From positions 162,612 through 226,611 of the forward strand of contig CAVRNT010000001.1 of assembly GCA_963722655.1 (NCBI GenBank): DNA of 64,000 nucleotides, read 5' to 3'. A model generated the notes under the pieces. It was not told the DNA's origin. It ran no database searches and worked only from the letters and a program-made list of their open reading frames with translations. This stretch comes from an uncultured bacterium. Its GTDB lineage: Bacteria > Patescibacteriota > Minisyncoccia > UBA6257 > GWB1-50-10. Of the stretch, positions 16,409 through 43,708 are shown one piece after another (the first letter of the stretch is position 1; each line of letters opens with the position of its first letter). The translations under genes and the position numbers were made by a program.

Positions 16409-16437
16409 AGTATACCATAAGAATACTTGTATGTCAA
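16409..16437 (-). promoter_or_regulatory. sigma70-like promoter for target gene 1 (TTGACA-17 bp-TATACT)
   Basis: Read on the minus strand: tttgacatacaagtattcttatggtatact. It is followed by a 9-bp inverted repeat (gttcctgaa/attcaggaac) before the RBS AAAGGAG. Confidence 0.55.
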
Positions 16438-16445
16438 ACTAGATT

Positions 16446-16486
16446 TGAAATAAAAAGAGGGTTGCCAACAAGTGTTGGTAACCCTC
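16446..16486 (-). terminator. rho-independent terminator of target gene 2 (gagggttaccaac-actt-gttggcaaccctc + T-run)
   Basis: 12-bp stem with one mismatch, then ctttttatttc on the minus strand. Confidence 0.55.
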
Positions 16487-16558
16487 AAAAATAACGCGGA
16501 CTAAAGGAGCAAACGACCAGACGTCAAAAGATCCAAGCGTTCAATTTGCAATGTTCGA

Positions 16559-17440
16559 TCACTGCGGGACGAAACCCGAGGCCGAACCATAGTAGTCGCT
16601 GGCAGCGCTGACCCAGCGCGCGCCGAGCCCGACCCTGCCGTCGCTGAAGCGGAAGCTCGGGGCCCCGGAGAAATCGCCATCGGCATCGGGAGCGTATTCG
16701 TCTCCTCCGCAGTCGACGTGCAATTGCTCCCAGCGGACGAGCCGATTATGGGTCAGCACTCTGCATCCTTCGGCGACGCTTCCCAAGCCGAACTCGTTTT
16801 GGTCGTAGAGGACTCTGCCGCGACGGACAGATTTTCCCCTCCAACGCAATCCGGCTTGACTCGGGATGATGATGAGATCACCCGGTTGGTCCTTCTTGAT
16901 TTTTGCCTCAAGCCCGGCCGTCTTTTTCGACTGTTGCAAGCGCCCCGGCCCAAGCTGGCCGTTCCGGTAATTCACGAAGTTTTGATATTTCTTTCCCAGG
17001 GCGGCAAGCACTTGTTCCGTTGCGGCGTTGTAATTGCCGAACGCTTCCCACCACACATAGACCAGCGGGCTTTCAATCCAATCCGGCAGATTCTTTAAGC
17101 TGTCGTACCAGGCCCCTCCCTTAGTTAGAGCCCATGTTGCGTTCAATCCGGGGAAATACTCCAAAAGAATGTCGATCTGCTCTCGGATTGATTTCCGCTT
17201 GTATTCCTTGGGGTAAGTGTAGTCGGACGATTTTTCCTCATCCGCGTAGAGATACTTGATGAATATCTCCTTGCGGGAAATTCGGACTGCCGTTTGCAGC
17301 ATGTCGCCGTGCTTTAGAAGACACTGAGCTTCGTCGTTTGTGGGTTTCGGCGTAAAGAGTTCGTCCTCCATTACGACGCGACTCAGTTGCTTTTCTTGAC
17401 CATCTGTCATTGGCATGATCGATGTGGTATTCATCGTCAT
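16559..17440 (-). CDS. DGR target protein 2 (paralog of target 1)
   Basis: C-terminus ...DGRVGLGARWVSAASDYYGSASGFVPQ is encoded by VR2. The 5' UTR architecture matches target 1. Confidence 0.85.
   Translation of the reverse strand: MTMNTTSIMPMTDGQEKQLSRVVMEDELFTPKPTNDEAQCLLKHGDMLQTAVRISRKEIFIKYLYADEEKSSDYTYPKEYKRKSIREQIDILLEYFPGLNATWALTKGGAWYDSLKNLPDWIESPLVYVWWEAFGNYNAATEQVLAALGKKYQNFVNYRNGQLGPGRLQQSKKTAGLEAKIKKDQPGDLIIIPSQAGLRWRGKSVRRGRVLYDQNEFGLGSVAEGCRVLTHNRLVRWEQLHVDCGGDEYAPDADGDFSGAPSFRFSDGRVGLGARWVSAASDYYGSASGFVPQ
16562..16691 (-). repeat. variable repeat VR2
   Basis: About 19 substitutions relative to the TR, all at TR adenines. Identical 3' IMH-like block. Confidence 0.85.
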
Positions 17441-20597: not shown

Positions 20598-22004
20598 ATG
20601 CAGGAAAGACCGCCGGTCATAGTGGTGATGGGACACGTGGATCACGGGAAGACCACGCTTTTGGACTATATTCGGAAGACCGCCCTAGCCTCCCGCGAGG
20701 CGGGCGGCATTACCCAAGCGATTGGCGCCTACGAAGCGGAGTGGAAAGGGAAGAAGGTGACCTTCATTGACACGCCGGGTCACGAGGCCTTCCAGAACAT
20801 GCGCGCTTACGGCGCGCGCGTCGCCGACCTCGCGATCCTCGTCGTCGCGGCGGACGACGGCGTGAAACCCCAGACCAAGGAAGCGCTCCAGACGATCCTC
20901 ACGGCCAAGATCCCTTACGTCGTCGCTATCAATAAGATCGACAAGAACAACGCCGACCCGGAGCGCGCCAAGAAGGAGCTGCTCCAGAACGGCGTCCTTT
21001 TGGAGGGGATGGGCGGAGACGTTTCGTATCAGGAAATATCGGCCAAAACGGGTGAGGGCGTGCCGGAACTTCTGGACCTCGTGCTTCTCGCGACCGAGAT
21101 GGAAAGCTTGACGACCGACCCCGAAGCGCCCGCCTCCGGCATCGTGATGACAAGCCGACGGGATTCGCGGCGCGGCGTTTTGGTCGGCATCGTGATCAAA
21201 AACGGCGTTTTGAAAGAAGGTGACCCGATCCGGACCGCGACGGCGAGCGGCAAGGCGAAGATGATCGAGATCGGAAGTGGGGAGAAGGCGGAAGAGCTTT
21301 CACCTTGCGCTCCGGCGCTCATCATCGGTTTCGATTCTCTCCCGCGGGTGGGCGAAAGATTCACGACGGACCTGAACGAAAAGATGGATCAGTTGGAGGC
21401 TGGACCCGCCACGGCGGAGGTCGCCGAAGGCGTCGAGGCCTTAACGGTCGTCCTCAAGGCGGACGAGACCTCTTCGCTCGAGGCGCTCAAAGGCTTGGTC
21501 TTGAAATCGGCCGGCAAGTCGCCGCTCAAGGTGGTGGACGCGAGCGTGGGGAACATCACCGAGAACGACGTCAAGACCGCGGACGCGGCGAAGGCGCTCG
21601 TCATCGGCTTCAAGACGAAAATTGACCGGGCGGCCGAGAACCTCGCGGAGGGACGGCACGTCGAGATCGTGGAATCACCCATCATTTACGAACTCGAAAA
21701 GACGCTCACCGAGCGCTTGGGGAAGGTGAACCCGGCCGATCGCCGGCGGCTTGAAATCCTCGCGACCTTCGGCACGCCGAAGGGCGATGAGCAGGTCGTG
21801 GGCGGCCGCGTCGTCCTCGGGCCCATCAAGAATCAGGAAACCTTCGAAGTGTGGCAGAGCGAAGAAAAGATCGGCGAAGGGAAGATCTTGAACCTCCAAG
21901 CGCAAAAGAAGGACATCGCGGAAGCGAGCGAGGGGATGGAAGCGGGCCTCTTGGTCCAAAGCGCGACGTCCATTAAGCAGGGGAACGTGCTGATGTTCAA
22001 ATGA
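20598..22004 (+). CDS. infB: translation initiation factor IF-2 (minimal form, begins at the G domain)
   Basis: G1 VMGHVDHGKTTLLD, G3 DTPGH, G4 NKID, then the C-terminal beta-barrel domains. Only 468 aa. Followed by rbfA, the classic synteny. Confidence 0.9.
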   Translation: MQERPPVIVVMGHVDHGKTTLLDYIRKTALASREAGGITQAIGAYEAEWKGKKVTFIDTPGHEAFQNMRAYGARVADLAILVVAADDGVKPQTKEALQTILTAKIPYVVAINKIDKNNADPERAKKELLQNGVLLEGMGGDVSYQEISAKTGEGVPELLDLVLLATEMESLTTDPEAPASGIVMTSRRDSRRGVLVGIVIKNGVLKEGDPIRTATASGKAKMIEIGSGEKAEELSPCAPALIIGFDSLPRVGERFTTDLNEKMDQLEAGPATAEVAEGVEALTVVLKADETSSLEALKGLVLKSAGKSPLKVVDASVGNITENDVKTADAAKALVIGFKTKIDRAAENLAEGRHVEIVESPIIYELEKTLTERLGKVNPADRRRLEILATFGTPKGDEQVVGGRVVLGPIKNQETFEVWQSEEKIGEGKILNLQAQKKDIAEASEGMEAGLLVQSATSIKQGNVLMFK

Positions 22005-27065: not shown

Positions 27066-29321
27066 ATGAAGAGAAAAATAATTTCTCTGTCTGTGATCTT
27101 TTGTGGAGCGGCCGTCGCGGTCTTTATATTAGTCGGATATATCCCCGGCGCGAAGGCCGATACTAGTAACTTTTCGGCAAACGCTCCATCGGCTTGCGCC
27201 ATAGGCTTCAACTGGACCGAGACCGGCAATTCCCTGAACTACGACTACTATCAGTACAAGGCCTGGATTGGGAGGGCGTCCCAAGGGAGCTTGATTAATT
27301 GGGCGACCCTCGACAAAAGCAATATCACCCTGAGCGGTACCGGCCGGAGTTTTCTCATCACCAACGCAGCGTACGGCGACAAAGGTCCGAAGCCGAACAC
27401 CAGCTACTACGTAATGCTTCAAGGATGCCTGAACGTCGGCGGCTGCACCCCAATTTCCTCCAAGAGCGAGCCCTATCCGGTAAGGACCTCTGACATCGCC
27501 TCGCCGCCTGCCCCGCCGACCAGCTTGTCAACTTTAGGTTGGCCGGGTGATCTACCGAACATCGCTTGGCAGCCGTCCGCGACGCCGAGCTACAGCGGCT
27601 TCCGGATCTACCGTTCGGATACCGACACGAACGCCTCTTCGTTTACGAACGTCGACACTAAAAGCTCGGACGATTTTTTGAGCCAGAAAAGCCAATGGCA
27701 GGACAATAGTTTGAGCGGCACGTCGATCGCCACCAGCAGCCCGCATTTCTACGAAATCCAGACGTACGAAACCGATCAATATTGCCAACCCGTCGATAAC
27801 ACGACCTCCCAGAGCGCAAATTGGGTTAAATTCAACAGCACGCTTTCGACCATCCTCACGGTGCCGCAGACGCCCAACAAAGTCGGCCCCAATTCCATCA
27901 CCCAAACCAGTGGCCAGTTCAACGTCGTTTTCGGTTGGCAAAACGTACTCAATAACACCGGCTACAATTTTGACATCGCGAGCGACAAGAATTTCACAAA
28001 CATCGTGAATTCCCAATCTTACTCCCAGAACACGAATTCAACCCAATCGTTCACTCTATCCCCTAATCAAATCTTCTATTACCGCATTAAGGCCTTGAAC
28101 TCGAGCGCCGGGAATTCTTCATTCTCCGATTACGCGGCGGGCGTGATTCAGACCGGCCTCGTGGCGCCAGTCAATCCCGTGGCCGCCATCCTTTCCGCCG
28201 ATCCGACGGCGAAAAAGGTGACGGTCAATTTAGCTTGGTCGGACACAGCGCAGTATCAGCGCCAGATCGACATTTACCGCGGCACGGACGGCGCCAATTT
28301 CTCTCTGGTAGCGACCCTAAGCCCCTCAAGCTGCATCGGGGGATCGTGCATCTATCCGACATCGTACGTGGATAACAACAAAGGCGCCAAATTGGACATC
28401 GGCCCGACCTACTATTACAAGGTTTCGTTCGTCTATACTGATCCCATAATAATCGGCAGCGGGAACACAGTTGAGGTACCGAGCAGCGTGTTCAGCATCG
28501 ACTCCAACGTGACACCCCTGACGAATTACGCTTGGTCGGGCCAGGCGGCGAACGGCGGGACGGATCCCGGCATCGGCTGGATCAGCTTCAGCGCTGCGAA
28601 CGAGACGGGAGCCACTGCTCCTTACGGCGTCTTTATGAACACGAGTACCGGTGTGCTTTCCGGCTACGCTTGGACGGAGTGGAATGGCTGGCTCTCATTC
28701 AACCCGGGCGATCTTACAGGGTGTCACAGCGGAAATTGCAACGCGCAAGTGAATTTGTCCACTGGCCAAGTGTCCGGTTGGGCGAAGTTCATAGGCGCGG
28801 ACAGCACGCAAGGTGCCTGGGACGGCTGGGTGAGCTTAAGCGGGAGCAACGGTTTACCGCCCGGTAACGCTAGAGCCGTTTCGTGGGGAGTTACGTACGA
28901 TCCTTCGACGGGGAAATTCTCCGGCGAGGGATGGGGCGGCGACGTTGCCGGTTGGATCTCTTGGTGCGACAGCGCTCCTTTCGCGAGCGGCGCCAACCGA
29001 TACTGCGTCACGACCGGCGCCGGTACGTTGCCGAGTGCGAACGCCCCGACAATTATAAGTACCTCATCGACCGCAAATTCCATCACGGTCACGTGGACGA
29101 ACCCGATTAGTTATAGTCAGATACAGATCGAACAAACTAACGCACCTAATATGAGCGCTCAACAAATACAAGATAAGGGGAATTACATAGTGGTGAGAAC
29201 ATTTAATTCTAGTAATCCTAGTGATGCTGCATATACTAAAGCCATATCATCGATCTCTTATACTATTCCTAACCTCAACGCAAGCAGTACGTACGGCATT
29301 TTCGTTAGGGGAACTCCATAG
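27066..29321 (+). CDS. large secreted surface protein with fibronectin type III-like repeats
   Basis: Signal peptide (SVIFCGAAVAVFILVG). Repeated W/Y-x-W beta-sandwich-like segments. 751 aa. Confidence 0.5.
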   Translation: MKRKIISLSVIFCGAAVAVFILVGYIPGAKADTSNFSANAPSACAIGFNWTETGNSLNYDYYQYKAWIGRASQGSLINWATLDKSNITLSGTGRSFLITNAAYGDKGPKPNTSYYVMLQGCLNVGGCTPISSKSEPYPVRTSDIASPPAPPTSLSTLGWPGDLPNIAWQPSATPSYSGFRIYRSDTDTNASSFTNVDTKSSDDFLSQKSQWQDNSLSGTSIATSSPHFYEIQTYETDQYCQPVDNTTSQSANWVKFNSTLSTILTVPQTPNKVGPNSITQTSGQFNVVFGWQNVLNNTGYNFDIASDKNFTNIVNSQSYSQNTNSTQSFTLSPNQIFYYRIKALNSSAGNSSFSDYAAGVIQTGLVAPVNPVAAILSADPTAKKVTVNLAWSDTAQYQRQIDIYRGTDGANFSLVATLSPSSCIGGSCIYPTSYVDNNKGAKLDIGPTYYYKVSFVYTDPIIIGSGNTVEVPSSVFSIDSNVTPLTNYAWSGQAANGGTDPGIGWISFSAANETGATAPYGVFMNTSTGVLSGYAWTEWNGWLSFNPGDLTGCHSGNCNAQVNLSTGQVSGWAKFIGADSTQGAWDGWVSLSGSNGLPPGNARAVSWGVTYDPSTGKFSGEGWGGDVAGWISWCDSAPFASGANRYCVTTGAGTLPSANAPTIISTSSTANSITVTWTNPISYSQIQIEQTNAPNMSAQQIQDKGNYIVVRTFNSSNPSDAAYTKAISSISYTIPNLNASSTYGIFVRGTP

Positions 29322-29516
29322 AAAGGTTCTGTTTGTATGTTTGGAAAAGGCCCGCAATATTGTGGGCCTTTTTAATTAAAAACCTAGATAAAATCTGCCT
29401 AATTTGACTTTTCCATATATTATGTGGTATAATAACTGTAGTTAAGGATCATCCTTAACCGCTAACTTTAAAACTAAACAATAGCTGAAACTAAAAAAAG
29501 AAAGGAGCGCTTTAGA

Positions 29517-30860
29517 ATGAAGCGTATGTTCTTCTTGGCGTTGGCGCTCCTTTTGAGCGTCGCGCCTTTGGCTTTCGGACAGCATTCCGACAGCGCTACA
29601 AAGACCGATTGGTCTTGGATATGGCCCGATGCGTCAGTAAGACGGGTATATCCCAATATCCACGCAATGGCTATTGACGGCGCAGGGGACATATTTGCAT
29701 CGATGATCGTTGATGACACAACCGATGGTTTATACATTTCACGCGATAACGGTCAGACATTTGCGAAAGTTCCAGCCTCGGCATTTGGCAATAAACTCGG
29801 TTCCAATGGTGCGTATGCAATTTGGACAATTTGTGCCAATACCAACGGAGTGTTTGTCGGAGCCGATCAGTATATTTTTAAGAGTACTGATTACGGGAAT
29901 AACTGGACGAAGGTGTTGTATAACTACAGCGAAGGTTACCACGCCCTAGTTTTTGACAGCAATAATACCGTATTTGCTGGTGGCGGCCGAGGGATCTACC
30001 GTTCAACAGATGGCGGGTTTACATGGATGAATGTTGATTCCAACGATTTATCTTCGGATAGAAAATTCTACTACGTAAACACTATGACCGTTTCGTCCAA
30101 CGGAACGATCTTCGCCGGTACTAGTTCCGGCCTCGGAGCCGGCGCTTACGGAATCCGCAGGTCAACAGACGGCGGGAACACCTGGGAATACGCCAATAAC
30201 GGTATCGGCAGTCACAACGACAGCACGTGGAACACCGACATCATCAGCATGGCGACATGCGGCAAGACGGTCTTCGCGGTCTCCAACCATCTCTATCGTT
30301 CAACTGACGGCGGGGATAGTTGGCAGATAGTCGGCGACTCTCTCTTCTACGGAGTTGAGAGCGGAGCGATCTTCGCCTCAAAAAAAGGCCTGATTGTCCC
30401 AACGCTGTATGCTCTTTGGATCACGACGGATCTCGGCGCTACTTGGCACGAACTCATCAACTTCTCGCTTCCCATTAACGTCTGGTCGGCAGCCCAATGG
30501 GATGCCGATAACAAGGTCCTTATGGGGATGTGGAACGGCCTCGCGGTCCTCACGATAGGGGATTTGACCCCCGTCATCGAGCACCAGCCGGTTGCGTCTA
30601 GTTTCCAGCTCTCCCAGAACTATCCGAACCCGTTCAATCCAACGACGACGATCAGTTACTCTCTGTCTCAGAGGACCTACGTAACCCTCAAGGTCTACAA
30701 CGTTCTCGGTCAGGAAGTAACGACTCTGGTTGACGGATATCAGTCACTCGGATCGCATCAGGTCACCTTTGACGGTTCGAAGCTTTCCTCCGGCACCTAT
30801 TTCTATAGGTTGCAGGCGGGAAGCTTCTCCGAGACGAAGAAGATGGTATTGATGAAGTAA
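29517..30860 (+). CDS. BNR/sortilin-type repeat protein with C-terminal T9SS (Por) sorting domain
   Basis: Signal peptide. Repeated S-x-D-x-G-x-(T/S)-W motifs ([32 protein letters not shown]). C-terminal 80 aa [17 protein letters not shown]...[22 protein letters not shown] matches the TIGR04183-type CTD. It has its own AAAGGAG RBS and lower GC. Confidence 0.7.
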
Positions 30861-30957
30861 TGAGTCATCAATAGAGCCCAATTTCTCGCAAGAGGATTGG
30901 GCTCTTATATTTTCGACCACCCAAATTGGCTATTTGCCAGCTGCCGGAAGCGATATA

Positions 30958-32815: not shown

Positions 32816-34210
32816 TTGAAACCGGTATTCGGTCATAAGTCGATTGGCCTCACGGTGGCGCTTTTAGGAACGCTGGTTTTGAGTTTTCCCGCCGGAGCGG
32901 TCTTGGCCCAAACGCCGCCCTTCTACGACTCCCAGATCGTGACGGTGACGACGCTCGCGACGCCGCCGCCGGTCAATCTCGGCGCCGGTACCTACTCATT
33001 GGTATGCGCGCCTTCCCCGAACTCGGCGATATACCTCGGCTGGACGGCCAATGCATCGCCCGCCGTCGCTGGCACGGTTTATGCCTTTACCAACCCGACC
33101 TTTCGCCCGATAGACGGCACCGTGGTCACGACGGCCAACAGTTCCGGGAATTATTTGATGACCGTCACGTCCGGGGCGCCGAAATATTTTGAGATCCTTG
33201 GCAGCGGCTACAGCGCATTAAGCAACGTCGTCGGCCCGTGCAGTCCGCTCTCTCCGGTCTCGAGCGACGCGCCGACGCAGCTCAACGTCTTCACGAACGG
33301 TCCAGCCACCCTCTACCTGAACTGGAAGGACAACTCCACCTCCACCGCGACCTCAACCTTTGAGATCCAGCGCTTCCAAGTGACACCCGTCGCACCGTCG
33401 AATTTGAGCGTGACGCAAGCGGCAGGTTCGATGACGCTCCACTGGACCGACAATAATCCGACGGGAGGACCTCCCTTCTATGCGATCGTCGAGAGGAGTA
33501 ATGATACGAGCGCCGCCATGCGCTTCGACCCAATGAACGACCCGACACTCGTAACCTCCACCGTGAAGCAGGGGAACACATCCTTAACCGACGCCAATGG
33601 TCTGGTCATCGGCACGAACTATTACTACCGGGTGAAGGACGTTTCACAGCTCCCAGTGAGCAATTTCTATCAGATAGTCTCGGGGAGCACCGTCGCGAAG
33701 CCCGGGATCGCTTCGAGCACTTACGGAACACTTTTGCCGGTCACGTACACTCCGCCGGTCGGAATTAACCTCCTGAAGCAATCGCTCGGGAGCGTCATCG
33801 GCTGGCTCTTTGGGGCGCCGGTGGCCGAAGGCCAAACGTCACCGACCGTGAACTACGATAACTATTTCGCGACCATCGCGAGCAATGTCACCACGCCCTT
33901 TTACCCGGACTCCGGTCTTACACCCGGCACGGTCTATATGTACCGCGTCCGGCTCACGAAGGGGAGTTCAAGCACTTGGTCTAACATGGTCGCAGCCGTG
34001 ACGCTGCCGAGTGGCTCTTTGCCGAGTTGCCTTTCGGCTTCCCCGTCGAGTTGCGCCATAACGCCAATTTGTACTGCCTACGGTTACTGCGATCGCAGCG
34101 TCGCCGGCTATCGTTCTCCGGACTTCTCCCAGACGAGCGAATCGCAGTGCTCAGTCAACGCCGACTGCCGTAACGTCGGCCGGGCGAGCACGCAGACGCA
34201 GGAACAATAA
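32816..34210 (+). CDS. hypothetical secreted protein with FN3-like domains and a Cys-rich C-terminus
   Basis: Signal peptide (LTVALLGTLVLSFPAGAVLAQ), TTG start 7 nt after a GCTATAAT box, 12 Cys in the last 60 aa. Confidence 0.5.
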   Translation: MKPVFGHKSIGLTVALLGTLVLSFPAGAVLAQTPPFYDSQIVTVTTLATPPPVNLGAGTYSLVCAPSPNSAIYLGWTANASPAVAGTVYAFTNPTFRPIDGTVVTTANSSGNYLMTVTSGAPKYFEILGSGYSALSNVVGPCSPLSPVSSDAPTQLNVFTNGPATLYLNWKDNSTSTATSTFEIQRFQVTPVAPSNLSVTQAAGSMTLHWTDNNPTGGPPFYAIVERSNDTSAAMRFDPMNDPTLVTSTVKQGNTSLTDANGLVIGTNYYYRVKDVSQLPVSNFYQIVSGSTVAKPGIASSTYGTLLPVTYTPPVGINLLKQSLGSVIGWLFGAPVAEGQTSPTVNYDNYFATIASNVTTPFYPDSGLTPGTVYMYRVRLTKGSSSTWSNMVAAVTLPSGSLPSCLSASPSSCAITPICTAYGYCDRSVAGYRSPDFSQTSESQCSVNADCRNVGRASTQTQEQ

Positions 34211-34259: not shown

Positions 34260-35366
34260 ATGTTCAATCCGCTTCAATTCTTCCGGAATTTTTTTCAGGA
34301 TATTGGTAATTTTGTGAGTGCCCGGTCGGTCCTCGGCGTCGACATCGGCACCTCCTCTATCAAGATGGTGGAGCTCGCCCGAAAGGGCGACACCCTAACG
34401 CTTCTGAACTACGGTATCTTAGGGTCGAATGACTACCTGAACCATCCGAATCGGGCCATCCAGACGAGTTCCCTGAAGTTATCCGAAAAGGACGCGGCGG
34501 TGATGCTCAAAACGCTCATCGGCGAGACGCAACCGAAGAGTCGCCTCGCCGTCGCGACCATCCCGGCCTTCGCTTCGTTCCAAACCTTGATCGACATGCC
34601 ACTCCTTTCGCCCGCCGAGACCGCGAAGGCTGTGGAATTCCAGGCGCCCCAATACATTCCCTTGCCCTTGAGCGACGTCGCGGTCGACTGGCTCAAGGTG
34701 GACGAGTTCCAGACGGAGAACCGCGAGGCCTATCAGCGGATATTTTTGATCGGCCTCCCGAAGGACGTCCTTGAACGCTACAAAAGAACCTTCCGCGACG
34801 CGGGCTTGAAGCTCACAGCTCTCGAACTGGACGGCATCGCTATTTCGCGCGCCCTTCTCGCCAAAGAAACCGAACCGACACTTCTCATCGACCTTGGGGC
34901 GGTCGCTTCGGAGATTTTCGTCGTCCGGGAGGGCCGCTTGCTTTACGCGAGCCAGACGGATTATGGCGGTATTTACCTCACGCAGGCAATTGCGCGGAGC
35001 CTGGGACTAACGAACTCCCGGGCGGAAGAACTCAAGCGCCGCAAGGGTCTCACGGGCGGCGGCGCCGAGGCCGAGTTATCAACATTAACACTGCCTTTTT
35101 TGGATGTTATAATACAGGAGGTGAGCCACACGCGTGACGTCGTCGAGCGCCGGTACGGCCGCCCCATCAAACGAGCAATGCTCACGGGCGCGGGGGCGAA
35201 TCTCCTCGGGGTGGAGAAGTATTTCGGAAGCCAGCTAGACCTGCCTGTCGCGAAACCCAACCCCTTCCTCAACGTCAGCTACCCGGTGACCTTGGAACCA
35301 CTACTCCTGGAGCTCCAGAACGAACTGCCGGTCGCGATGGGGGCCGCGGAAAGATATTTTAGTTAG
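34260..35366 (+). CDS. pilM: type IV pilus assembly protein PilM (actin-like ATPase fold)
   Basis: N-terminal VLGVDIGTSSIKMVEL and the overall PilM pattern, 368 aa. Confidence 0.85.
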   Translation: MFNPLQFFRNFFQDIGNFVSARSVLGVDIGTSSIKMVELARKGDTLTLLNYGILGSNDYLNHPNRAIQTSSLKLSEKDAAVMLKTLIGETQPKSRLAVATIPAFASFQTLIDMPLLSPAETAKAVEFQAPQYIPLPLSDVAVDWLKVDEFQTENREAYQRIFLIGLPKDVLERYKRTFRDAGLKLTALELDGIAISRALLAKETEPTLLIDLGAVASEIFVVREGRLLYASQTDYGGIYLTQAIARSLGLTNSRAEELKRRKGLTGGGAEAELSTLTLPFLDVIIQEVSHTRDVVERRYGRPIKRAMLTGAGANLLGVEKYFGSQLDLPVAKPNPFLNVSYPVTLEPLLLELQNELPVAMGAAERYFS

Positions 35367-35927
35367 ATGCCGGAACAATCCAATCAGCCAGTTTTCAGGG
35401 AACAGTTTGTGACCGAGCCGGTCGCGGTGGGTTTCCCGTGGCGGCTTTTCGTCTTCTCGCTCGTCCTCTTTCTTCTCTCCCTCCTCATCTATTTCGGCTT
35501 GAAGTTCGGCTACGAAAATTATCTCCAGAATCAGGCGACGAGCGTGGATGGCCAGTTGAACCAGCTTTCAAACGCGGTGAGCCAGCAGGATCAGCAGCAG
35601 TTCGTGGGTTTCTATTCCCAGCTCGTGAATTTGAAGACAATCTTCGCTTCGCACGTCTTCTCCGCCAACAGCCTTCCGTTCCTCGAGAGGGACACCTTGC
35701 CGCAGGTCTACTACACCGACGCAAAATTCTCGGCGGGCGGTGACGCCCTTACCTTGACCGGCCAAGCCTCGTCGCTCCAGGTCCTCGCCGAGCAGATGGC
35801 GGAGTTCGAGCAGGCACCGGAGCTCCAGTCGGCGACGCTCTCGAGCACCGCCTTCAACCCGGGCGGCGCCGTGAGTTTCTCGGTCGATCTCGTTTTCAAA
35901 CCAACCTACCTCACCCAACCCCAATAA
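35367..35927 (+). CDS. pilN: type IV pilus assembly protein PilN-like
   Basis: Single TM near the N-terminus, then a coiled region. Position between pilM and pilO. Confidence 0.6.
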   Translation: MPEQSNQPVFREQFVTEPVAVGFPWRLFVFSLVLFLLSLLIYFGLKFGYENYLQNQATSVDGQLNQLSNAVSQQDQQQFVGFYSQLVNLKTIFASHVFSANSLPFLERDTLPQVYYTDAKFSAGGDALTLTGQASSLQVLAEQMAEFEQAPELQSATLSSTAFNPGGAVSFSVDLVFKPTYLTQPQ

Positions 35928-35928
35928 A

Positions 35929-36516
35929 ATGAAGGCTTCGTCCAAAAGAATATTGAGCATCTTGTTCTCGGCGGTCTTCCTCCTCGGGACGCTCATCGTG
36001 TACGGCAATCTGATCCAGCCCGAGATTACCGCCGCGAGCGCACTGCAATCCCTCGTCGCTTCGAAGACCAACCTCTTGAACAGCCAAAAGACCGCCGTCG
36101 CCCAGGTCTCGCAGCTCATCGGCCAGTTCCAAAACGCCGCGGCCCTCCAGCGGACGGTCTCACTCGCCATCCCAATCGGCCCGAACACGACGCAGATCCT
36201 GAACCAGTGGCAGGCCATGGCCCAGGCCGCCGGCGTCAGCCTCCAGTCGCTGAACGTCCAACCGGCGCCGCCCGCGGGGCCGGTCGCCGCGACGAGCACC
36301 CTCGTCAAGAATCCTGGCAGCGTCGCGATCACGGTCACCGCCGTCGGACCCTACACCTCGCTCAAGCAGTTCCTGCAATCCTTGGAGACGAACGTCCGGG
36401 TGACGAACGTGAACTCCTTTGAATTGAACGCCCTCCAAGGCAGCGGTCAGGGCGGGCCGGGGAACGGGGTTTACGCCCTCCAAGCGAGCGTCGCCGCTTT
36501 CTATCAAATCAACTAA
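35929..36516 (+). CDS. pilO: type IV pilus assembly protein PilO-like
   Basis: N-terminal TM (ILSILFSAVFLLGTLIV), a Q/A-rich coiled coil, synteny. Confidence 0.55.
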   Translation: MKASSKRILSILFSAVFLLGTLIVYGNLIQPEITAASALQSLVASKTNLLNSQKTAVAQVSQLIGQFQNAAALQRTVSLAIPIGPNTTQILNQWQAMAQAAGVSLQSLNVQPAPPAGPVAATSTLVKNPGSVAITVTAVGPYTSLKQFLQSLETNVRVTNVNSFELNALQGSGQGGPGNGVYALQASVAAFYQIN

Positions 36517-36517
36517 C

Positions 36518-36811
36518 ATGGCCATCGTAATGGAACAAGAGAAAAAGAAGGTGAACTGGTTCAATCTGATCCTCGTTGCGCTCTTCATCATCGTCCTCTT
36601 CCTCGTCACCTATTTCATCTTCTTCAAAAAACCGGAACTGATCGACGTCGTCGCGCCCGGTTCCCTCCAAAGCATCAGCCAGATCTCGCAGATCCAGCTC
36701 GATCCGACGCCGGTCGTCCAGACCTTGAACAAGTACTTCACGGGCAACTACGGCGGGACGCTCACTATCCCGACGCCGGGCAGAACGAACCCGTTCGCGC
36801 CGTACCAGTAA
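36518..36811 (+). CDS. small single-TM protein in the pilus operon (PilP-like role possible)
   Basis: 97 aa with TM LILVALFIIVLFLVTYFIFF. Start codons overlap those of pilO and pilB. Confidence 0.35.
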   Translation: MAIVMEQEKKKVNWFNLILVALFIIVLFLVTYFIFFKKPELIDVVAPGSLQSISQISQIQLDPTPVVQTLNKYFTGNYGGTLTIPTPGRTNPFAPYQ

Positions 36812-36818
36812 AATCCGC

Positions 36819-38549
36819 ATGACCGACCAGGAATTAATCCAAGCGCTTCAGAAGAAGGGTCTGCTCCCCGCCGCCTCGGCTGCGAAGCTCGTCAAGGAGG
36901 CCGGACTGCGCGAGCGGAGCGCGGAGGACCTCATCTATGAAGAGCGCCTCGTACCAGACGCCGAAGTGGCGGCGGTCAAAAGCGAGCTCTTGAAGATCCC
37001 GTACAAGAAGATCGACCCCGCTGCGATCGGCGAAGACCTCTTGAAGATCATCCCCAAGGACACCTCCCGGGCTTACCAGGTGGTCCCGCTCGAAAAGCGG
37101 CGAGACCTCCTCGTCGTCGGAATGCTCCATCCGGACAATCTGCAGGCGCAGGAGGTGCTCCGCTTCATCGCCAAGCAGAATCGGGTGAGCTTGGGCGTCT
37201 ACATCGTGACGCCGACCGATCTTCAGGCGGTGTGGCGCAAGTACGCCCCTTACCGGACGGAGATCGAAGCGGCCGTGAAGGAAATCGGGCCGTCGCGCCC
37301 AGTGGACGATCTGATGGTGACCCTCGAAGAGGGCGCTCGCACGGCCGAGGACGCCCCTATCATCCAGATCGTCGCCTCGACGCTCCGGGAAGCGGTCGAG
37401 GCCAAGGTCTCCGACATCCACATCGAGCCGGAGAAGGACCGGGTGCGCATTCGCTTCCGGTTGGACGGCAAGCTCGAGGAAACCGCCTCGGTGCCATCCG
37501 CCTTGGGCCAACCCATCATCTCGCGCATCAAGGTCCTCGCCAAATTACGGCTCGACGAGACGCGCGTGCCGCAGGACGGCCGTTTTCGGACAGTCGTGGG
37601 TGGCCGCGACATCGACTACCGTGTTTCCACCTTCCCGACGCCATCGGGCGAGAAGGTGGCCATCCGCGTCTTGGACCCCGCGACCGGCCTCAAGGGTCTT
37701 AAAGAGTTGGGACTGAACGACTACAACTTTGGACTTTTGGAAAAAGCGGCCGAGGCGCCTTACGGCATGATTCTCATCACCGGCCCCACGGGCTCGGGCA
37801 AGACGACGACCCTCTATGCGGTGATGCAGAAATTGAACCGCGACGACGTGAACATCGTAACCCTCGAAGACCCGGTGGAATATTTTATGGACGGCATCAA
37901 CCAGTCCCAAGTGAAACCCGAGATCGGCTACGATTTCGCCTCGGGACTCCGGCAGATCCTCCGCCAGGATCCGGACGTCATCATGGTGGGCGAGGTGCGG
38001 GACGAAGAGACGGCGAGCCTCGCCGTCCAATCCGCCTTGACCGGCCACTTGATGCTCTCCACCCTCCACACCAATAACGCGATCGGCGTCATCCCGCGCC
38101 TCGTCGACCTCAAGGTGCCGGGCTTTCTCCTCTCCGCTTCGCTCAATCTGATGCTCTCCCAGCGCCTCGTCGGCCGTCTCTGCCCGGATTGCAAGAAACC
38201 GGTCCCGGCGCCCGAAGCGGCGACGAAGTTCATCGACGAAGCGTTCCAAACGCTCCCGCCGATGCTCAAAGAGAAGCTGGACGCGAAGAGACCATATCAG
38301 GTCTACCGGAGCGAACCCAAACCAGACTGCAAGATCTGCAAAGGGAAGGGAATGGTCGGCCGAGTGGCGATCTTCGAGATCTTCCGAATGACCCGGGAGC
38401 TCGGCAATCTTTTGAACAAGGGCTACAGCGAGAGCGACCTAATGGACGAAGCCAAGCGCCAGGGAATGGTCCCGATGCGCGCGGACGGCATTCTCAAAGC
38501 GCTCCAAGGGGAGGTGCTCCTCGAAGAGGTGCTGCGCGAGACGGAGTGA
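36819..38549 (+). CDS. pilB: type IV pilus extension ATPase PilB (GspE family)
   Basis: Walker A GPTGSGKTT, Asp/His boxes, tetracysteine CPDC...CKICKGKG, N-terminal GSPII-like domain. Confidence 0.9.
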   Translation: MTDQELIQALQKKGLLPAASAAKLVKEAGLRERSAEDLIYEERLVPDAEVAAVKSELLKIPYKKIDPAAIGEDLLKIIPKDTSRAYQVVPLEKRRDLLVVGMLHPDNLQAQEVLRFIAKQNRVSLGVYIVTPTDLQAVWRKYAPYRTEIEAAVKEIGPSRPVDDLMVTLEEGARTAEDAPIIQIVASTLREAVEAKVSDIHIEPEKDRVRIRFRLDGKLEETASVPSALGQPIISRIKVLAKLRLDETRVPQDGRFRTVVGGRDIDYRVSTFPTPSGEKVAIRVLDPATGLKGLKELGLNDYNFGLLEKAAEAPYGMILITGPTGSGKTTTLYAVMQKLNRDDVNIVTLEDPVEYFMDGINQSQVKPEIGYDFASGLRQILRQDPDVIMVGEVRDEETASLAVQSALTGHLMLSTLHTNNAIGVIPRLVDLKVPGFLLSASLNLMLSQRLVGRLCPDCKKPVPAPEAATKFIDEAFQTLPPMLKEKLDAKRPYQVYRSEPKPDCKICKGKGMVGRVAIFEIFRMTRELGNLLNKGYSESDLMDEAKRQGMVPMRADGILKALQGEVLLEEVLRETE

Positions 38550-38600
38550 GCGCGCCGAGACTTTTTCGTGTATGATTAGTAGAAGTCAGCGCGCGACCAT

Positions 38601-39680
38601 ATGCCAACGACGAACTATAAGGACAAACTGAACGACCTCTTGCTCCAGACCGCGAAGCAGAACGCCTCGGACCTTCACCTCGCGGTCGGGCGGCGGCCCA
38701 CGATCCGGGTGGACAGCGTCCTCATCCCCTTGGCCCAAGAGGCCATCTTGACCAAAGAAGACACGGAGGGCTTGATCTTTTCGCTCCTCACCGAGGAACA
38801 AAAACAGACCTTCCTCACCGAGAAACAGCTGGACTTCTCTTTCAACTACGAGGACAAGGCCCGCTTCCGGGTGAACACCTATTACCAGCGCGGCTTCATG
38901 GCTGCCGCTTTGCGTTTGATCCCGGCCCAGATCCGGACGGTGGAGGAACTGAACCTGCCGCCGCTCCTCCACGATTTCACGAAACTGAATCAGGGTTTCA
39001 TCTTGGTCGTGGGGCCTGCCGGCCACGGCAAGTCCACGACCTTGGCCGCCCTCCTCGACGAGGTGAACCACAAGCGGAATGACCACATCATCACGGTCGA
39101 GGACCCAATCGAATACGTCTTCTCCCAGGACCGCTGCATCGTCTCCCAAAGGGAAGTGGGGGCTGACACCCTCTCTTTCCATGACGCGTTGCGGGCGGTC
39201 CTCCGCCAGGACCCGGATGTCATCATGATCGGCGAGATGCGCGACCCGGAAACGATCGCGACGGCGATGACGGCCGCCGAGACTGGCCACCTGGTCTTCT
39301 CAACGCTCCACACTAACTCCGCCTCCCAGACCATCGACCGCATCATCGACAGCTTCCCGCCGAACCAACAAGGCCAGGTCATCTCCCAGCTCGCCTCGAC
39401 CTTAGTGGCCATCATTTCAGAGCGCCTCGTGCCGCGCCTCGGCGGCGGGCGGATTCCCTCGATAGAAATAATGCTCGTGAACCCGGCCATCCGGAACCTC
39501 ATCCGCGAAAAGAAGATCTACCAGATCGACCTCGTCATCGAGACGAGCATCCAGGAAGGGATGATGTCCTTGAACCGTTCGCTCGTGAACCTCGTGAAGC
39601 GCAAGGAGGTATCGCTCGAGGAAGCTGAGACCTACTCCCTGAACCCGGCGGAACTGCGCATCCTCCTCGAGCGCACTTAG
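38601..39680 (+). CDS. pilT: type IV pilus retraction ATPase PilT
   Basis: Walker A GPAGHGKST, PilT signature ...HLVFSTLHTNSA..., 359 aa. Confidence 0.9.
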   Translation: MPTTNYKDKLNDLLLQTAKQNASDLHLAVGRRPTIRVDSVLIPLAQEAILTKEDTEGLIFSLLTEEQKQTFLTEKQLDFSFNYEDKARFRVNTYYQRGFMAAALRLIPAQIRTVEELNLPPLLHDFTKLNQGFILVVGPAGHGKSTTLAALLDEVNHKRNDHIITVEDPIEYVFSQDRCIVSQREVGADTLSFHDALRAVLRQDPDVIMIGEMRDPETIATAMTAAETGHLVFSTLHTNSASQTIDRIIDSFPPNQQGQVISQLASTLVAIISERLVPRLGGGRIPSIEIMLVNPAIRNLIREKKIYQIDLVIETSIQEGMMSLNRSLVNLVKRKEVSLEEAETYSLNPAELRILLERT

Positions 39681-39696
39681 GTTATAATTAAAGGAA

Positions 39697-40902
39697 ATGA
39701 AGTTCGATTATAAGGCCAGAACCAAAGAGGGGGAACTCCAAGTGGGGAACGTCGAGGCCTCGAACCGCGACGCGGCTTTGAGTATCCTTTTGGGCCACCA
39801 GCTCTTCGTTCTGAGCTTGGAAGAGGAACAGAATGCCGCGTGGTACACGCGCCTTCTCGACATCTTCAAGCGGGTCAAATCCCAGGATATCATGATCTTC
39901 ACGCGGCAGTTCGCGACGCTCCTCGCCTCTCAAGTGCCCCTTTCGGACAGCTTGGCCAATTTGTACAAACAGACGACGAAACCGGTCCTCAAGGAGGCCA
40001 TCTATGAGATTGCGAACGACATCGACGCCGGTTTCTCGCTCTCGCAATCCTTGGAGCGGCACAAAGCCATCTTTTCCGAGTTCTACGTGAACATGGTGAA
40101 ATCGGCCGAGGTGACCGGGCGCTTGAGCGAGGTCTTAGACTTCCTCGCCGATTACTCCGAGAAGCAGGCGACACTGATCGCCAAGGTGAAGAACGCCCTG
40201 ACCTACCCGGCCTTCGTCATAGTCCTCTTCATCGTCGTCGTGGCGGTGATGGTCACGATGGTCTTCCCGCAGATCACGCCGATCTTCGCCGAGTCGCACG
40301 TGGCGTTGCCCTTCTTCACCCAGGTCCTCTTGGGCATCAGCCAGTTCATGGCCGCCTGGTGGTGGGTCCTTGCGATCGCCCTTGTGGCCGTTGTCGTGCT
40401 CCTTTTGGATTACTTTCAGACGAACGAAGGCAAAGCGGTCTTGGACACCTTGGTCCTCAGGACCCCCATCATCGGTCCGCTCTTCCAGAAGCTTTACATC
40501 GCCCGTTTCGCCGAATCCGCCCGGGTGCTCATCAAAGGCGGGCTCACCATCCCCCAGGCCGTCGAGATCTCATCGCACACAATCGGCAACACCATCTACG
40601 CCGAGCTCCTGCGCGATGCCGCCGAGCAGATCCGTAAAGGCAAGCTTCTCTCCCAAGCCCTCGCGCCGATGTCGGAATTCCCGCCCCTCGTCTCCCAGCT
40701 CGTCGCCGTTGGGGAATCGACCGGTCGGTTGGAGGACCTTTTGGGCAAGATCAACGACTTCTATAGCCGCGAGGTGGACAACACCGTGAGCAATTTGGTG
40801 GAACTCATTCAGCCAATTCTAATGGTTGTAATCGGCGTCATCATCGCCATTCTCTTTGCCTCCATACTTCTGCCGATCTATAACCTGTCGCAGGCGTTCT
40901 AA
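39697..40902 (+). CDS. pilC: type IV pilus inner-membrane platform protein PilC (GspF family)
   Basis: Two GspF-like repeats, 3 TM regions, 401 aa. Confidence 0.9.
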   Translation: MKFDYKARTKEGELQVGNVEASNRDAALSILLGHQLFVLSLEEEQNAAWYTRLLDIFKRVKSQDIMIFTRQFATLLASQVPLSDSLANLYKQTTKPVLKEAIYEIANDIDAGFSLSQSLERHKAIFSEFYVNMVKSAEVTGRLSEVLDFLADYSEKQATLIAKVKNALTYPAFVIVLFIVVVAVMVTMVFPQITPIFAESHVALPFFTQVLLGISQFMAAWWWVLAIALVAVVVLLLDYFQTNEGKAVLDTLVLRTPIIGPLFQKLYIARFAESARVLIKGGLTIPQAVEISSHTIGNTIYAELLRDAAEQIRKGKLLSQALAPMSEFPPLVSQLVAVGESTGRLEDLLGKINDFYSREVDNTVSNLVELIQPILMVVIGVIIAILFASILLPIYNLSQAF

Positions 40903-40964
40903 AATCAAGATAGTCGCCTAAACTTAACTGTAAACCTTAAGAACGTCGCTATAATAAAAAACAA

Positions 40965-41435
40965 ATGGTCGATAATTTCGGAAACAAAATGCTTAATAGG
41001 AAAGGAGGTTTCACGCTCATTGAAATGCTCGTCGTGATCGCGATGATCGGCATCCTGTCGGCCGTCGTCTTGACCGCCCTCGGCCCTTCCCGCAATAAAG
41101 CGAAAGATACGAGGATTATTTCCGATGTGAACCAAGTCAGGGCTTTAGGCGAAATCGATTATAACGCCACGACCGGCGAGTATACCGATTGCGCTAATAC
41201 CGCCGCTGGTTTTAGTGCACTTGTTACCGATATATCCTCTCAAGGCGGGTCCCTATCGGTTAGTTGTAATAGTGGTGATACTCAAGCCGCCTACTCTTCG
41301 AAATTAGCTTCGAATAGCTCGACATATTTCTGCGTGGATTCCACGGGTGTAACCTCTGCTAACGCAGATTCCGTGGGGTCTTGCTCTACGGTCTCAATCC
41401 CGCCACCATATACAACTGGCTGGGACGAGGAGTGA
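40965..41435 (+). CDS. pilA: type IV pilin (pilin 1), C-terminus fused to IS-derived sequence
   Basis: Prepilin signal ...RKGG/FTLIEMLVVIAMIGIL with E+5. Disulfide-loop cysteines. The last ~16 codons (IPPPYTTGWDEE) come from a truncated IS3 orfA read in another frame. Confidence 0.75.
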   Translation: MVDNFGNKMLNRKGGFTLIEMLVVIAMIGILSAVVLTALGPSRNKAKDTRIISDVNQVRALGEIDYNATTGEYTDCANTAAGFSALVTDISSQGGSLSVSCNSGDTQAAYSSKLASNSSTYFCVDSTGVTSANADSVGSCSTVSIPPPYTTGWDEE

Positions 41436-42371
41436 AAGGCAACCCCACCATTGGTGAACTCGTTCGTCTCAAGCGCCAGAACGATGAGCTTCTCGCTCTC
41501 GTGGGCGAGCTCACTCTTGCCTCCTCCCGGACTCAAAAAAAGCGTTGATCAAGAAGCAGAAGAAGACGAAGCGAGCACTGGCCCGTGAGCTTGGTATTTC
41601 GAGATCGAGTCTGTACTACGCCTCAAAGCAAATACCAAAGGATTGGGAACTCAAAACAAAGATAGAGGAGGTGCTCTCGAAGGATCCGAGCTACGGCTAC
41701 CCGAGAGTGGCGCTCGCTCTTCATGTGAACCGGAAGAGAGCTCAGAGAGTGATGAGACTCTTCGGGATAAAGGCATATCGGAGAAGAGGAAGAAAGCCAA
41801 GAAAAATGGGCGTGGCGAGAACCCCGTACCCAAATCTCCTCAAAACCAATTATCCGAGATTTCCCAATGACATCTGGGTGGCAGACTTCACGTACATTCC
41901 GTATCAGGGAAAGTTCCTGTATCTGGCGACCGTACTAGATCTCTTCACGAGAGAGATTGTGGGCTCCGCGGTGATGAATGTTCATTCAGTGCCATTGATT
42001 CTTCAAGCTTTCTTCTCTGCGGTGGAGTTCCATCCCAGGCCGAACATCTTTCATTCGGACAACGGAAGAGAATATGGATCCAAGGTCTTTGAAGGAACTC
42101 TCATGGAGTTTGGCATCCGGATATCCCGGAGCGCAAAAGCCTCTCCCTGGGAAAACGGATACCAAGAGTCTTTCTATGACAAATTCAAAGTGGACCTGGG
42201 AGACCCGGAGAGATTCAAGACGTTGGGAGAACTGGTCTATGAGATTCATCGCCTTGTCTGGCATTACAATCACCAGAGGATTCATTCCATCCTCAAGATG
42301 CCACCACTCTTATTCGCAGAACGTTACCAAAAACTTGTCGAAAAAGTGTCTTAACTTTGGGGGTATTGCCA
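41388..42371 (+). mobile_element. IS3-family insertion sequence, 5'-truncated copy (last 52 codons of orfA + complete orfB + right IR)
   Basis: Identical to the interior of the full copy at 59991..61135 from acggtctcaat onward. Right end ...gggggtattgcca. Lacks the left IR and the 5' part of orfA. Confidence 0.85.
41545..42354 (+). CDS. IS3-family transposase OrfB (DDE integrase core)
   Basis: DDE residues in WVADFTYIP, IFHSDNGREY and SPWENGYQESF. Overlaps the orfA remnant in the -1 frame just after an A AAA AAG slippery site. Protein identical to 60017..60826. Confidence 0.9.
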   Translation: MIKKQKKTKRALARELGISRSSLYYASKQIPKDWELKTKIEEVLSKDPSYGYPRVALALHVNRKRAQRVMRLFGIKAYRRRGRKPRKMGVARTPYPNLLKTNYPRFPNDIWVADFTYIPYQGKFLYLATVLDLFTREIVGSAVMNVHSVPLILQAFFSAVEFHPRPNIFHSDNGREYGSKVFEGTLMEFGIRISRSAKASPWENGYQESFYDKFKVDLGDPERFKTLGELVYEIHRLVWHYNHQRIHSILKMPPLLFAERYQKLVEKVS

Positions 42372-42373
42372 TT

Positions 42374-42418
42374 GGGATCATCGGGATCATTGGGATCATC
42401 GGGATCATCGGGATCGAC
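42374..42418. repeat. 9-bp tandem repeat (GGGATCATY) x5 immediately outside the IS right end
   Basis: Read directly: gggatcatc gggatcatt gggatcatc gggatcatc gggatcg. Confidence 0.7.
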
Positions 42419-42721
42419 CGTCACTATTGATAGGCCGACAGAGTTTGATTTCCCTATTTGTTCTGGTAGTGCTGACGAATGGTGTAAAGAGAACGGTTAT
42501 TCTGCTGGCGGCTCCGACAGCGCGCCATATGGTGGTGGTACTTGCCAAACATACACAGGAGGCAATTGGCATGCCGGCAACAATGCGTGGGTAGGTGCGA
42601 TTTGCAACGAGTAATCTGTGCGCGTTCGTTGCTCTTGTCTTCACATCTATTTACATCACGATCCAAAAATTCTTCTACATCCTAACCGAGATGTTGATTA
42701 TGTTATAATGTAAGTAAGTAA

Positions 42722-43144
42722 ATGGTCGATAAACTCAGCAAATCATCAATGTTAAAAAACGAAAGAGGTTTCACGCTCATTGAAATGCTCGTCGTGATCG
42801 CGATGATCGGCATCCTGTCGGCCGTCGTCTTGACCGCCCTCGGCCCTTCCCGCAATAAAGCGAAAGATACGAGGATTATTTCCGATGTGAACCAAGTCAG
42901 GGCTTTAGGTGAAACCGATTATAATGCAACCGCAGGCACTTATGCCGATTGCAGTAATAGTGCTACCGCTGCCATTAGTAATTTGGCAACGGATATCACC
43001 AGTCAAGGAGGGGCGCTAACGGTGAACTGTAACACTGGTAGTACTCAAGCTGCTTATTCCTCGAGCTTGAACGCTGGTGGAAATTATTGCGTCGACACGA
43101 CCGGCAAAACGTCCAGCAATGCGGCGACCGGCGGGGGCTGCTAA
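42722..43144 (+). CDS. pilA: type IV pilin (pilin 2)
   Basis: Prepilin signal and first ~55 codons are nucleotide-identical to pilin 1 (~150 bp). Divergent C-terminal half ending in the Cys-loop ...YCVDTTGKTSSNAATGGGC. TGNTATAAT extended -10 box 12 nt upstream. Confidence 0.8.
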   Translation: MVDKLSKSSMLKNERGFTLIEMLVVIAMIGILSAVVLTALGPSRNKAKDTRIISDVNQVRALGETDYNATAGTYADCSNSATAAISNLATDITSQGGALTVNCNTGSTQAAYSSSLNAGGNYCVDTTGKTSSNAATGGGC

Positions 43145-43235
43145 ATTGAATTCGTCAAAAAGGGAAGATCGGCGGTGGAAAACCGCCGGTCTTTTCTTTG
43201 ATTTTGCGCGGCGATTTGGTATGATTAACGTAGAT

Positions 43236-43703: not shown

Positions 43704-43708
43704 GTGGA

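Follow-up and report, generated by a model that had tools for sequence, protein, structure and literature searches.

The DNA considered here is a 64-kb stretch (hereafter, the window) of contig CAVRNT010000001.1, and the gene in question encodes a protein in which a BNR-type beta-propeller is followed by a type-A type IX secretion system (T9SS) C-terminal domain (CTD). The reading frame of this BNR-CTD gene, which lies between a gene for a protein with a fibronectin type III (fn3)-like domain and the region of a type IV pilus locus, occupies exactly the positions and length given in a preliminary description of the DNA made from its letters (Table 1). The full-length AlphaFold2 model of the protein has a mean predicted local distance difference test (pLDDT) score of 82 and consists of an N-terminal helix, a seven-bladed propeller, a disordered linker, and a seven-strand beta-sandwich. 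The signal peptide was called by inspection together with the N-terminal helix of the model, which spans residues 2-14 and is followed by a disordered stretch; this region is kept in the orthologs. An exact-sequence look-up of the 447-aa protein returned no record.

The preliminary description had recognized a type-A T9SS CTD in the last ~80 residues, and profile searches bear this out. Over residues 369-444, Pfam PF18962 (Por_Secre_tail) scores 46.2 bits against a gathering threshold of 27, and TIGR04183 scores 45.5 bits against a cut-off of 23. The domain sits at the extreme C-terminus, ends at the last residue, and is preceded by a flexible linker; the protein begins with a putative signal peptide. 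Modeled alone, the CTD reaches a pLDDT of 87 and folds into seven strands forming an immunoglobulin-like beta-sandwich. Its structural neighbors include mirolase (8QB1, rank 6), RemZ (8GL8_D, rank 11), and RemA (8GL6_D, rank 25), with modest E-values (7e-3 to 2e-2) for what is a generic fold. A profile built from the CTDs found in bacteria of the candidate phyla radiation (CPR), the group to which the host belongs, gives a weak match to the Flavobacterium johnsoniae CTD chain 8GLJ_D. The fold motifs of the domain, including SGxY, are present, as is a lysine near the C-terminus (K442). According to Lauber et al., the conserved type-A motifs set the fold of the CTD without contacting the translocon; the sole exception among the conserved residues is the almost invariant and functionally important near-C-terminal lysine, which touches PorV and has no fold-specifying role (PMC10994853). 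In sequence, fold, and position alike, the protein belongs to the type-A CTD domain family and to the BNR propeller superfamily. It does not count as a demonstrated T9SS cargo, since the defining machinery is not expected in this phylum.

The body of the protein passes the Pfam thresholds for BNR (30.2 versus 27 bits) and Sortilin-Vps10 (42.8 versus 33). The earlier assignment of a BNR/Asp-box body was therefore right, although its count of four repeats was not: six Asp-box-like motifs were found in the translation, two of them strict SxDxGxTW and four with one position changed. In a Foldseek search with the full model, the top match in the PDB was PorZ (5M11, E 5e-14). The best single-domain fold match was Ycf48, with a target-normalized TM-score of 0.71-0.73, and Ycf48 was also the only PDB sequence match for the propeller body; glycoside hydrolase family 74 (GH74) structures matched only as partial propellers. 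The propeller is a seven-bladed, BNR/Ycf48-like one of no recognizable catalytic family.

Table 1. Features of the BNR-CTD locus and of other parts of the window (window positions; aa, amino acids; CDS, coding sequence)
Feature	Positions	Strand	Details or basis
Diversity-generating retroelement (DGR), reverse transcriptase (RVT_1)	13476-14501	-	
DGR template repeat	~14915-15101		
DGR target genes, two paralogs	15433-16341, 16559-17440	- (both)	
Partner gene on the upstream side: protein of 751 aa, hydrophobic anchor or signal at the N-terminus, fn3-like domain at the C-terminus	27066..29321	+	Open reading frame
Terminator-like hairpin ending the fn3 gene, GGCCCGC..GTGGGCC, then T run	29344..29373	+	-20.9 kcal/mol, z = -5.3, 0/200 shuffles as stable
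Sigma-70-type promoter, TTGACT, 18 nt, TGgTATAAT (extended -10)	29404..29433	+	11/12 matches
Stem-loop just 3' of the -10 box	29438..29462	+	-9.7 kcal/mol, z = -3.7
Shine-Dalgarno (SD) box AAAGGAG, 9 nt before ATG	29501..29507	+	Sequence
CDS, BNR propeller with T9SS CTD	29517..30860	+	447 aa plus stop
Putative Sec-type signal peptide, no lipobox Cys, cleavage before Q	29517..29582	+	Read from sequence
Seven-bladed BNR/Asp-box beta-propeller, aa ~30-348	29604..30560	+	AlphaFold2, Foldseek, Pfam
Flexible linker, propeller to CTD, aa ~349-368	30561..30620	+	pLDDT <50 at residues 356-372
Type-A T9SS CTD, aa 369-447, seven-strand beta-sandwich, terminal KKMVLMK-COOH	30621..30857	+	Profile scores, model
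Terminator-like hairpin, then U-rich tract, 3' of the CDS	30873..30905	+	-21.3 kcal/mol, z = -5.8, 0/200 shuffles as stable
fn3/purple-acid-phosphatase-N-like protein, precedes the pilus locus	32816-34210	+	464 aa
Type IV pilus locus: PilM, PilN, PilO-like, PilB, PilT, PilC, four N_methyl (pilin-type) reading frames, PilD	34260-46250		

The window encodes LeuRS, MetRS, TyrRS, PheRS, IF-2, ClpP, LigA, GatA, and RecG as well as 16 tRNAs, and it is core chromosome of a Patescibacteria (Minisyncoccia/Jorgensenbacteria-like) genome. Every named sequence among the best 120 matches of its TyrRS comes from the CPR (Patescibacteria group, Minisyncoccia, Jorgensenbacteria, Brennerbacteria), one further match being labeled only "bacterium", and a copy identical at 100% lies on a 379,531-bp contig. 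IF-2 (20598-22004) is a 468-aa short form that lacks the long N-terminal region; its counterparts on two related CPR contigs have 472 aa (L170) and 471 aa (L172).

The genome had been described beforehand as monoderm-looking, with a pilus locus devoid of a secretin. Both statements agree with what was found. The type IV pilus locus carries the pilins, PilD, and the other components listed in Table 1 and contains no secretin, and the CPR affiliation seen with TyrRS places the genome in a phylum described as monoderm and as possessing monoderm-type type IV secretion systems (PMC11665869, PMC12102498). No T9SS or outer-membrane family was detected among the ~54 window reading frames scanned, nor any such gene among the called genes of the related contigs L001, L170, and L172 (~59 kb). 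CTD proteins occur once per ~120 kb of CPR DNA sampled, whereas bacteria of the Fibrobacterota-Chlorobiota-Bacteroidota (FCB) group encode many per genome. In the full-text literature, no paper was found that links CPR bacteria or Patescibacteria with the T9SS or its sorting domain. Each of these observations speaks against the idea that the protein is ordinary T9SS cargo of a lineage whose outer membrane and secretion system are encoded outside the window. That idea draws on the fact that 64 kb of the genome was read here, and we regard it as very improbable.

The gene is not confined to this genome. At least eight other CPR-type contigs carry it; it is linked to a ~750-aa fn3 gene in seven of them and lies directly downstream of that gene in six (L001, L084, L085, L086, L167, and L172), with the fn3 gene ~2 kb upstream in L003. 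The close orthologs comprise six proteins of 445-452 aa that are 54-67% identical and are all encoded on CPR-type contigs; beyond them, identity drops to ~33%, and ~700-aa two-propeller proteins appear. The gene order of L001 (TyrRS, 81% identical, followed by ClpP, a 160-aa protein, further genes, an fn3 protein of ~714 aa, and the BNR-CTD protein) is that of the window, and in L172 (Patescibacteria, GCA_023380715.1, TyrRS 68% identical), the pair of fn3 and BNR-CTD genes stands at the syntenic place. A more distant protein, P0065 from L167, is 34% identical; upstream of its gene lie an fn3 C-terminus and a TTGACT...TGTGGTAT promoter, and on account of these two features, L167 is considered CPR-type despite its short context. 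In neighbor-joining trees on a MAFFT alignment, the close clade was monophyletic in 100 of 100 bootstraps, and P0065, then the L172 protein, joined it in the base tree. As for the partner, Pfam calls an fn3 domain in orthologs of the 751-aa protein, while the window copy matches neither a Pfam nor an NCBIfam family. Searching for homologs of the window copy gave itself and one weak match, word-based candidate selection having probably failed on this low-complexity protein. Near the start of L086 (1-123), a second CTD tail nearly identical to that of the BNR gene of the same contig is followed by a fragment of an fn3 C-terminus (373-765); this repeat stems either from tandem duplication of the fn3-BNR/CTD module or from an assembly artifact at the strain level.

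Metagenome-assembled genomes (MAGs) are prone to chimeras, and a CTD protein also occurs on a contig (L073, 3784-5676) from a MAG labeled Woesearchaeota, which, its context being uninformative, could reflect mis-binning or another ultra-small symbiont with a T9SS-type tail. A mis-assembled or mis-binned FCB fragment might accordingly be suspected as the source of the BNR-CTD gene. However, the gene stands between CPR core genes on a single contig, its composition matches that of its flanks, its start region is CPR-specific, and at least seven other samples and assemblies yielded this arrangement independently. We consider an artifact extremely unlikely, and contamination or chimerism was rejected as a candidate on the basis of the repeated independent assemblies.

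The expression signals around the gene are also shared within the CPR. The promoter listed in Table 1 is the only promoter-like site in the 4.2 kb between 26900 and 31100; it is nearly identical in L001, L003, and L084 and recognizable in L167 and L172. The stem-loop that follows it probably lies at the 5' end of a ~77-nt leader. Hairpins occur at the equivalent place in L001, L003, L084, and L172 with differing stem sequences, which points to compensatory changes. No Rfam family reaches its threshold on the stem-loop. RNAalifold reported no structure for the aligned 5' untranslated regions, in which MAFFT had misaligned the hairpin arms, and the hairpin was seen on folding each sequence singly. 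The start region GAAAGGAGCGNTNNNAAATG, which is the window's own, recurs in L001/L002, L003, L084, L085, L086, and L172, that is, in all CPR-type loci except L167, and in none of ~160 FCB loci. Since terminator-like hairpins, judged by inspection and folding, lie on both sides, the gene is probably monocistronic. With its near-consensus promoter, stem-loop, strong SD box, and flanking hairpins, it is predicted to be a transcription unit of its own.

Many window genes lack an SD box and show TATAAT at a position 5-9 nt upstream of their ATG (for example, those starting at 27066, 32816, 39697, and 40965 on the forward strand and at 12621 and 25258 on the reverse strand) and, given this spacing, look leaderless. 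The fn3 gene itself is one of them, with TATAAT 8 nt before its ATG. Leaderless mRNAs thus seem to be the norm in this genome, and the BNR-CTD gene and two target genes of a DGR appear to be leadered with strong SD boxes. The preliminary description had contrasted a canonical ribosome-binding site on this gene with SD-less TATAAT starts in its neighbors. The contrast holds for many neighbors, but the SD box is not unique, being shared by the two DGR targets. The retroelement occupies 13476-17440. The 3' ends of its targets match the template repeat, with mismatches almost only at template adenines, and both targets carry an AAAGGAG SD box and reach no Pfam family.

Where the gene came from can be approached through its relatives. 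An exhaustive profile search collected 34,106 clusters at E<=1e-30. Among the best 150 clusters (at 50% identity), only two are CPR-type, with single-propeller proteins of ~447 aa; the rest have at least 627 aa and are almost all multi-propeller. Scans of GTDB and JGI data found only FCB-type relatives (Ignavibacteria, Zixibacteria, Bacteroidota, and similar groups), at ~30% identity overall and 50-63% in the CTD, and the most similar named relatives are of the Ignavibacteria, Zixibacteria, and KSB1 types. Because the family is huge among FCB-type proteins and the single-propeller CPR form is rare, a transfer from FCB to CPR is the indicated direction.

The horizontal acquisition from an FCB bacterium that had been suggested is therefore supported in its direction, but not as a recent event. 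The synteny, promoter, 5' hairpin, and SD box are conserved, and the gene is taken not to be a recent arrival because it has been inherited vertically within a CPR sub-lineage and synonymous sites between orthologs are saturated. The lower GC content and deviant codon usage reported for the gene did not hold up. Its GC content is 0.51 versus 0.54 for the window, GC content at third codon positions is 0.62 among neighbors at 0.54-0.68, by codon-usage distance it takes rank 38 among 50 genes (more typical than most), and in five orthologous loci, the GC content of the gene lies within ~0.03 of that of the locus. Recent transfer as read from composition was thus ruled out by the codon-usage rank and the match between gene and locus GC. 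The compositionally foreign part of the window is at 55-62 kb rather than at the BNR-CTD gene. The simplest history would be vertical inheritance of the BNR-CTD gene in the Patescibacteria lineage following an old transfer of an FCB T9SS cargo gene. Under this history, a single old FCB-to-CPR transfer would have been followed by the loss of one propeller, unless a single-propeller form was captured; CPR-specific expression signals would then have been gained, and the gene would have descended vertically with some losses.

Probable mobile DNA lies elsewhere in the window. The low-GC island at ~55100-62300 (GC content 0.38-0.48) has the most deviant codon usage of the window and contains a resolvase gene (59490-60020) and several reading frames without a family. 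It is bounded by tRNA-Lys (54385-54458) and tRNA-Arg (62413-62487) genes and is, on that account, probably an integrated mobile element. Two IS3-family transposase reading frames with an rve integrase core, at 41545-42354 (+) and 60017-60826 (-), are alike in length, GC content, codon profile, and the upstream 40 nt; one copy has inserted into the type IV pilus locus, with the major pilin gene on one side of it and additional pilin genes on the other.

The CTD has been retained over a long divergence. Among six orthologs with DNA available, the proportion of synonymous differences (pS) is ~0.75, that is, saturated, and that of nonsynonymous differences (pN) is ~0.27, with body and CTD alike. 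Within the close clade, the two parts have a pN/pS of 0.35 (body) and 0.37 (CTD). A full-length CTD is kept in 9 of 9 CPR-type sequences, none of which has lost, truncated, or frameshifted it, and 37 of 96 columns of the CTD alignment are invariant among the six CPR orthologs. When L172 is compared with the close clade, identity is 29% in the body and 62% in the CTD; FCB pairs of similar body identity show a CTD identity of 51% (5th-95th percentile, 42-60%). These patterns indicate purifying selection on the CTD that is no weaker than in FCB bacteria, and judged by them, the fold of the domain is certainly under selection.

Conservation of this kind might nevertheless be read as a by-product. 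The propeller alone would then matter, and the CTD would be a functionless relic, an inert passenger conserved only because a misfolded terminal domain is costly. The conserved type-A motifs do specify fold rather than function (PMC10994853), the similar pN/pS of CTD and body in the close clade accords with such a view, and the CPR CTDs are inseparable from FCB CTDs in a CTD-only tree. What speaks against a relic is that the domain has stayed intact in all nine sequences even though synonymous sites are saturated and that, over the deep divergence, it is twice as conserved as the body. Moreover, one would expect a domain of 80 residues to disappear, if it were useless, from the strongly reduced genomes of the CPR. 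We therefore judge the relic explanation unlikely.

With moderate confidence, we favor the view that an old FCB cargo gene was domesticated in the CPR and that its CTD has been kept as a binding or anchoring beta-sandwich for the propeller. In a monoderm CPR cell without an outer membrane or T9SS translocon, the canonical role of the domain in export and attachment would be impossible in cis. The protein would cross the single membrane through Sec, and the CTD, in its folded beta-sandwich form, would serve to bind or tether the propeller on the cell surface, where the membrane-anchored fn3 neighbor would be its most obvious candidate partner. The propeller itself may be a ligand-binding module for a glycan or protein rather than an enzyme. 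That type-A motifs specify the fold and not translocon contacts fits retention of the CTD as a folded module (PMC10994853). The preliminary description had already raised a repurposed anchoring domain, a reading that the purifying selection on the CTD backs indirectly; repurposing for binding or anchoring is the most likely reading here.

Several points weigh against this domestication and deserve to be set out together. The absence of T9SS and outer-membrane genes covers only the 64-kb window and, by their called genes, related contigs of ~59 kb. The near-invariant lysine has been kept though it does not specify the fold, a hint that recognition of the T9SS type may still matter. The fn3 neighbor is no more than a candidate partner of the CTD, and at 29-39% identity to its orthologs (tblastn in the fetched loci), it is less conserved than the BNR protein, which is 54-67% identical within the close clade. 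Bootstrap support for a monophyletic group of L172 and that clade is 31% with the full alignment and 6% when only the body is used, so that the trees are compatible with a gene replacement at this one locus. Finally, the related genome L170 (TyrRS 74% identical) has no BNR-CTD copy in the syntenic 10 kb. The second, related Patescibacteria population represented by L170/L171, which has an 804,691-bp contig, was sequenced in one run (ERR10755942) together with the window organism, and the pair of fn3 and BNR-CTD genes is missing within that syntenic 10 kb.

The retained lysine also bears on a different explanation, in which the CTD is directed at another cell. If the CPR organism is an episymbiont of an FCB bacterium, its CTD might be recognized by the PorV carrier or the PorU/PorZ attachment complex of the host and hook the propeller, or the whole cell, to the host outer membrane. 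The CTD is as conserved in the CPR as in T9SS-bearing bacteria, and the near-C-terminal position is K in 7 of 9 and R in 2 of 9 CPR-type sequences (98 and 13 of 113 in the FCB set); this residue is the only conserved one that contacts PorV without a role in the fold (PMC10994853). On PorV, CTDs attach to the extracellular loops, and loading of CTDs onto purified translocons is feasible in vitro (PMC10994853). In addition, the gene is FCB-derived, an FCB-type homolog (L110) comes from the same metagenome project (VFSW) as L001, and the expression signals look strong. However, this explanation is inferential throughout. In the solved complexes, the CTD sits inside the SprA pore with more than half of its buried surface against SprA, and a low affinity for free PorV is expected by the authors of that work (PMC10994853). 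The lysine could also be structural, and a single CTD protein per ~120 kb of sampled CPR DNA is few. Host-directed mimicry is consequently held to be improbable. Its specific form, in which a domesticated host-type cargo serves as a grappling hook through an intact CTD read by PorV, PorU, or PorZ on the FCB host, seems slightly less probable still. If true, it would suggest that this Minisyncoccia lineage has Ignavibacteria-like FCB bacteria as its hosts.

The T9SS CTD is taken to mark diderm bacteria of the FCB group and export across an outer membrane. Here, it appears to have been inherited for a long time, with conserved expression signals of its own, and kept by selection in a lineage described as monoderm. 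Such long retention suggests either a T9SS-independent function in binding or anchoring, as in the domestication favored above, or a dialogue with the T9SS of another cell. With either outcome, the presence of a CTD would no longer equate to T9SS cargo when CTD matches in metagenomes are read. For the CPR group, the case offers a lead to an FCB donor and perhaps an FCB host. If the full genome were to encode a T9SS, this would be a major surprise for CPR envelope biology. We expect the case to be moderately surprising to specialists in the T9SS and in the CPR, and it provides a lead on CTD function outside the T9SS.

Comparison with known systems places the protein among several propeller families without assigning it to their functional classes. 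The photosystem II assembly factor Ycf48/HCF136 shares the seven-bladed BNR-type propeller, but it has no CTD. Membership was rejected on a score of 24.2 bits for NCBIfam PRK13684 against a cut-off of 326, and to our knowledge, CPR bacteria have no photosystem. Assignment as a GH74-like/F510_1955 glycosylhydrolase likewise failed: NF045728 scores 72.4 bits versus 175, and the catalytic cleft of GH74 needs two propellers, of which the protein has one. PorZ (5M11), from the attachment complex of the Porphyromonas gingivalis T9SS, is the best structural match and has the same plan of propeller followed by CTD. However, it contains two propellers and functions within the T9SS together with PorU, PorV, and PorQ, and no sign of orthology was seen. 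Membership in PorZ was rejected on the single propeller, 14% identity, an rmsd of 15.9 over 483 alignment columns, and the lack of a PorZ sequence match in the PDB search.

Likenesses are also found in two further groups. The studied type-A CTDs, namely those of F. johnsoniae RemZ, RemA, and NucA in the SprA-PorV translocon, of Tannerella forsythia mirolase, and of the gingipain type in P. gingivalis, share with the CPR domain the profile scores above cut-off, the seven-strand beta-sandwich, the fold motifs, the near-C-terminal lysine, and the linker. The difference lies in the setting, a CPR lineage with no translocon, carrier, or sortase known or found, in which secretion across an outer membrane and processing by PorU cannot be assumed. 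The second group comprises the ~700-aa FCB proteins annotated as YCF48-related or T9SS type A sorting domain BNR proteins, from Ignavibacteria, Zixibacteria, KSB1, Bacteroidota, and relatives. Here, the likeness is homology over both propeller and CTD, with 26-38% identity overall among the matches listed and 41-63% for the CTD in a CTD-focused alignment, and it extends to the Asp-box blades, the C-terminal CTD, and a layout that begins with a signal peptide. The CPR form differs from these proteins in having one propeller (~447 aa) instead of two, in its monoderm genome, in its CPR-specific promoter, hairpin, and SD box, and in its conserved fn3 neighbor.

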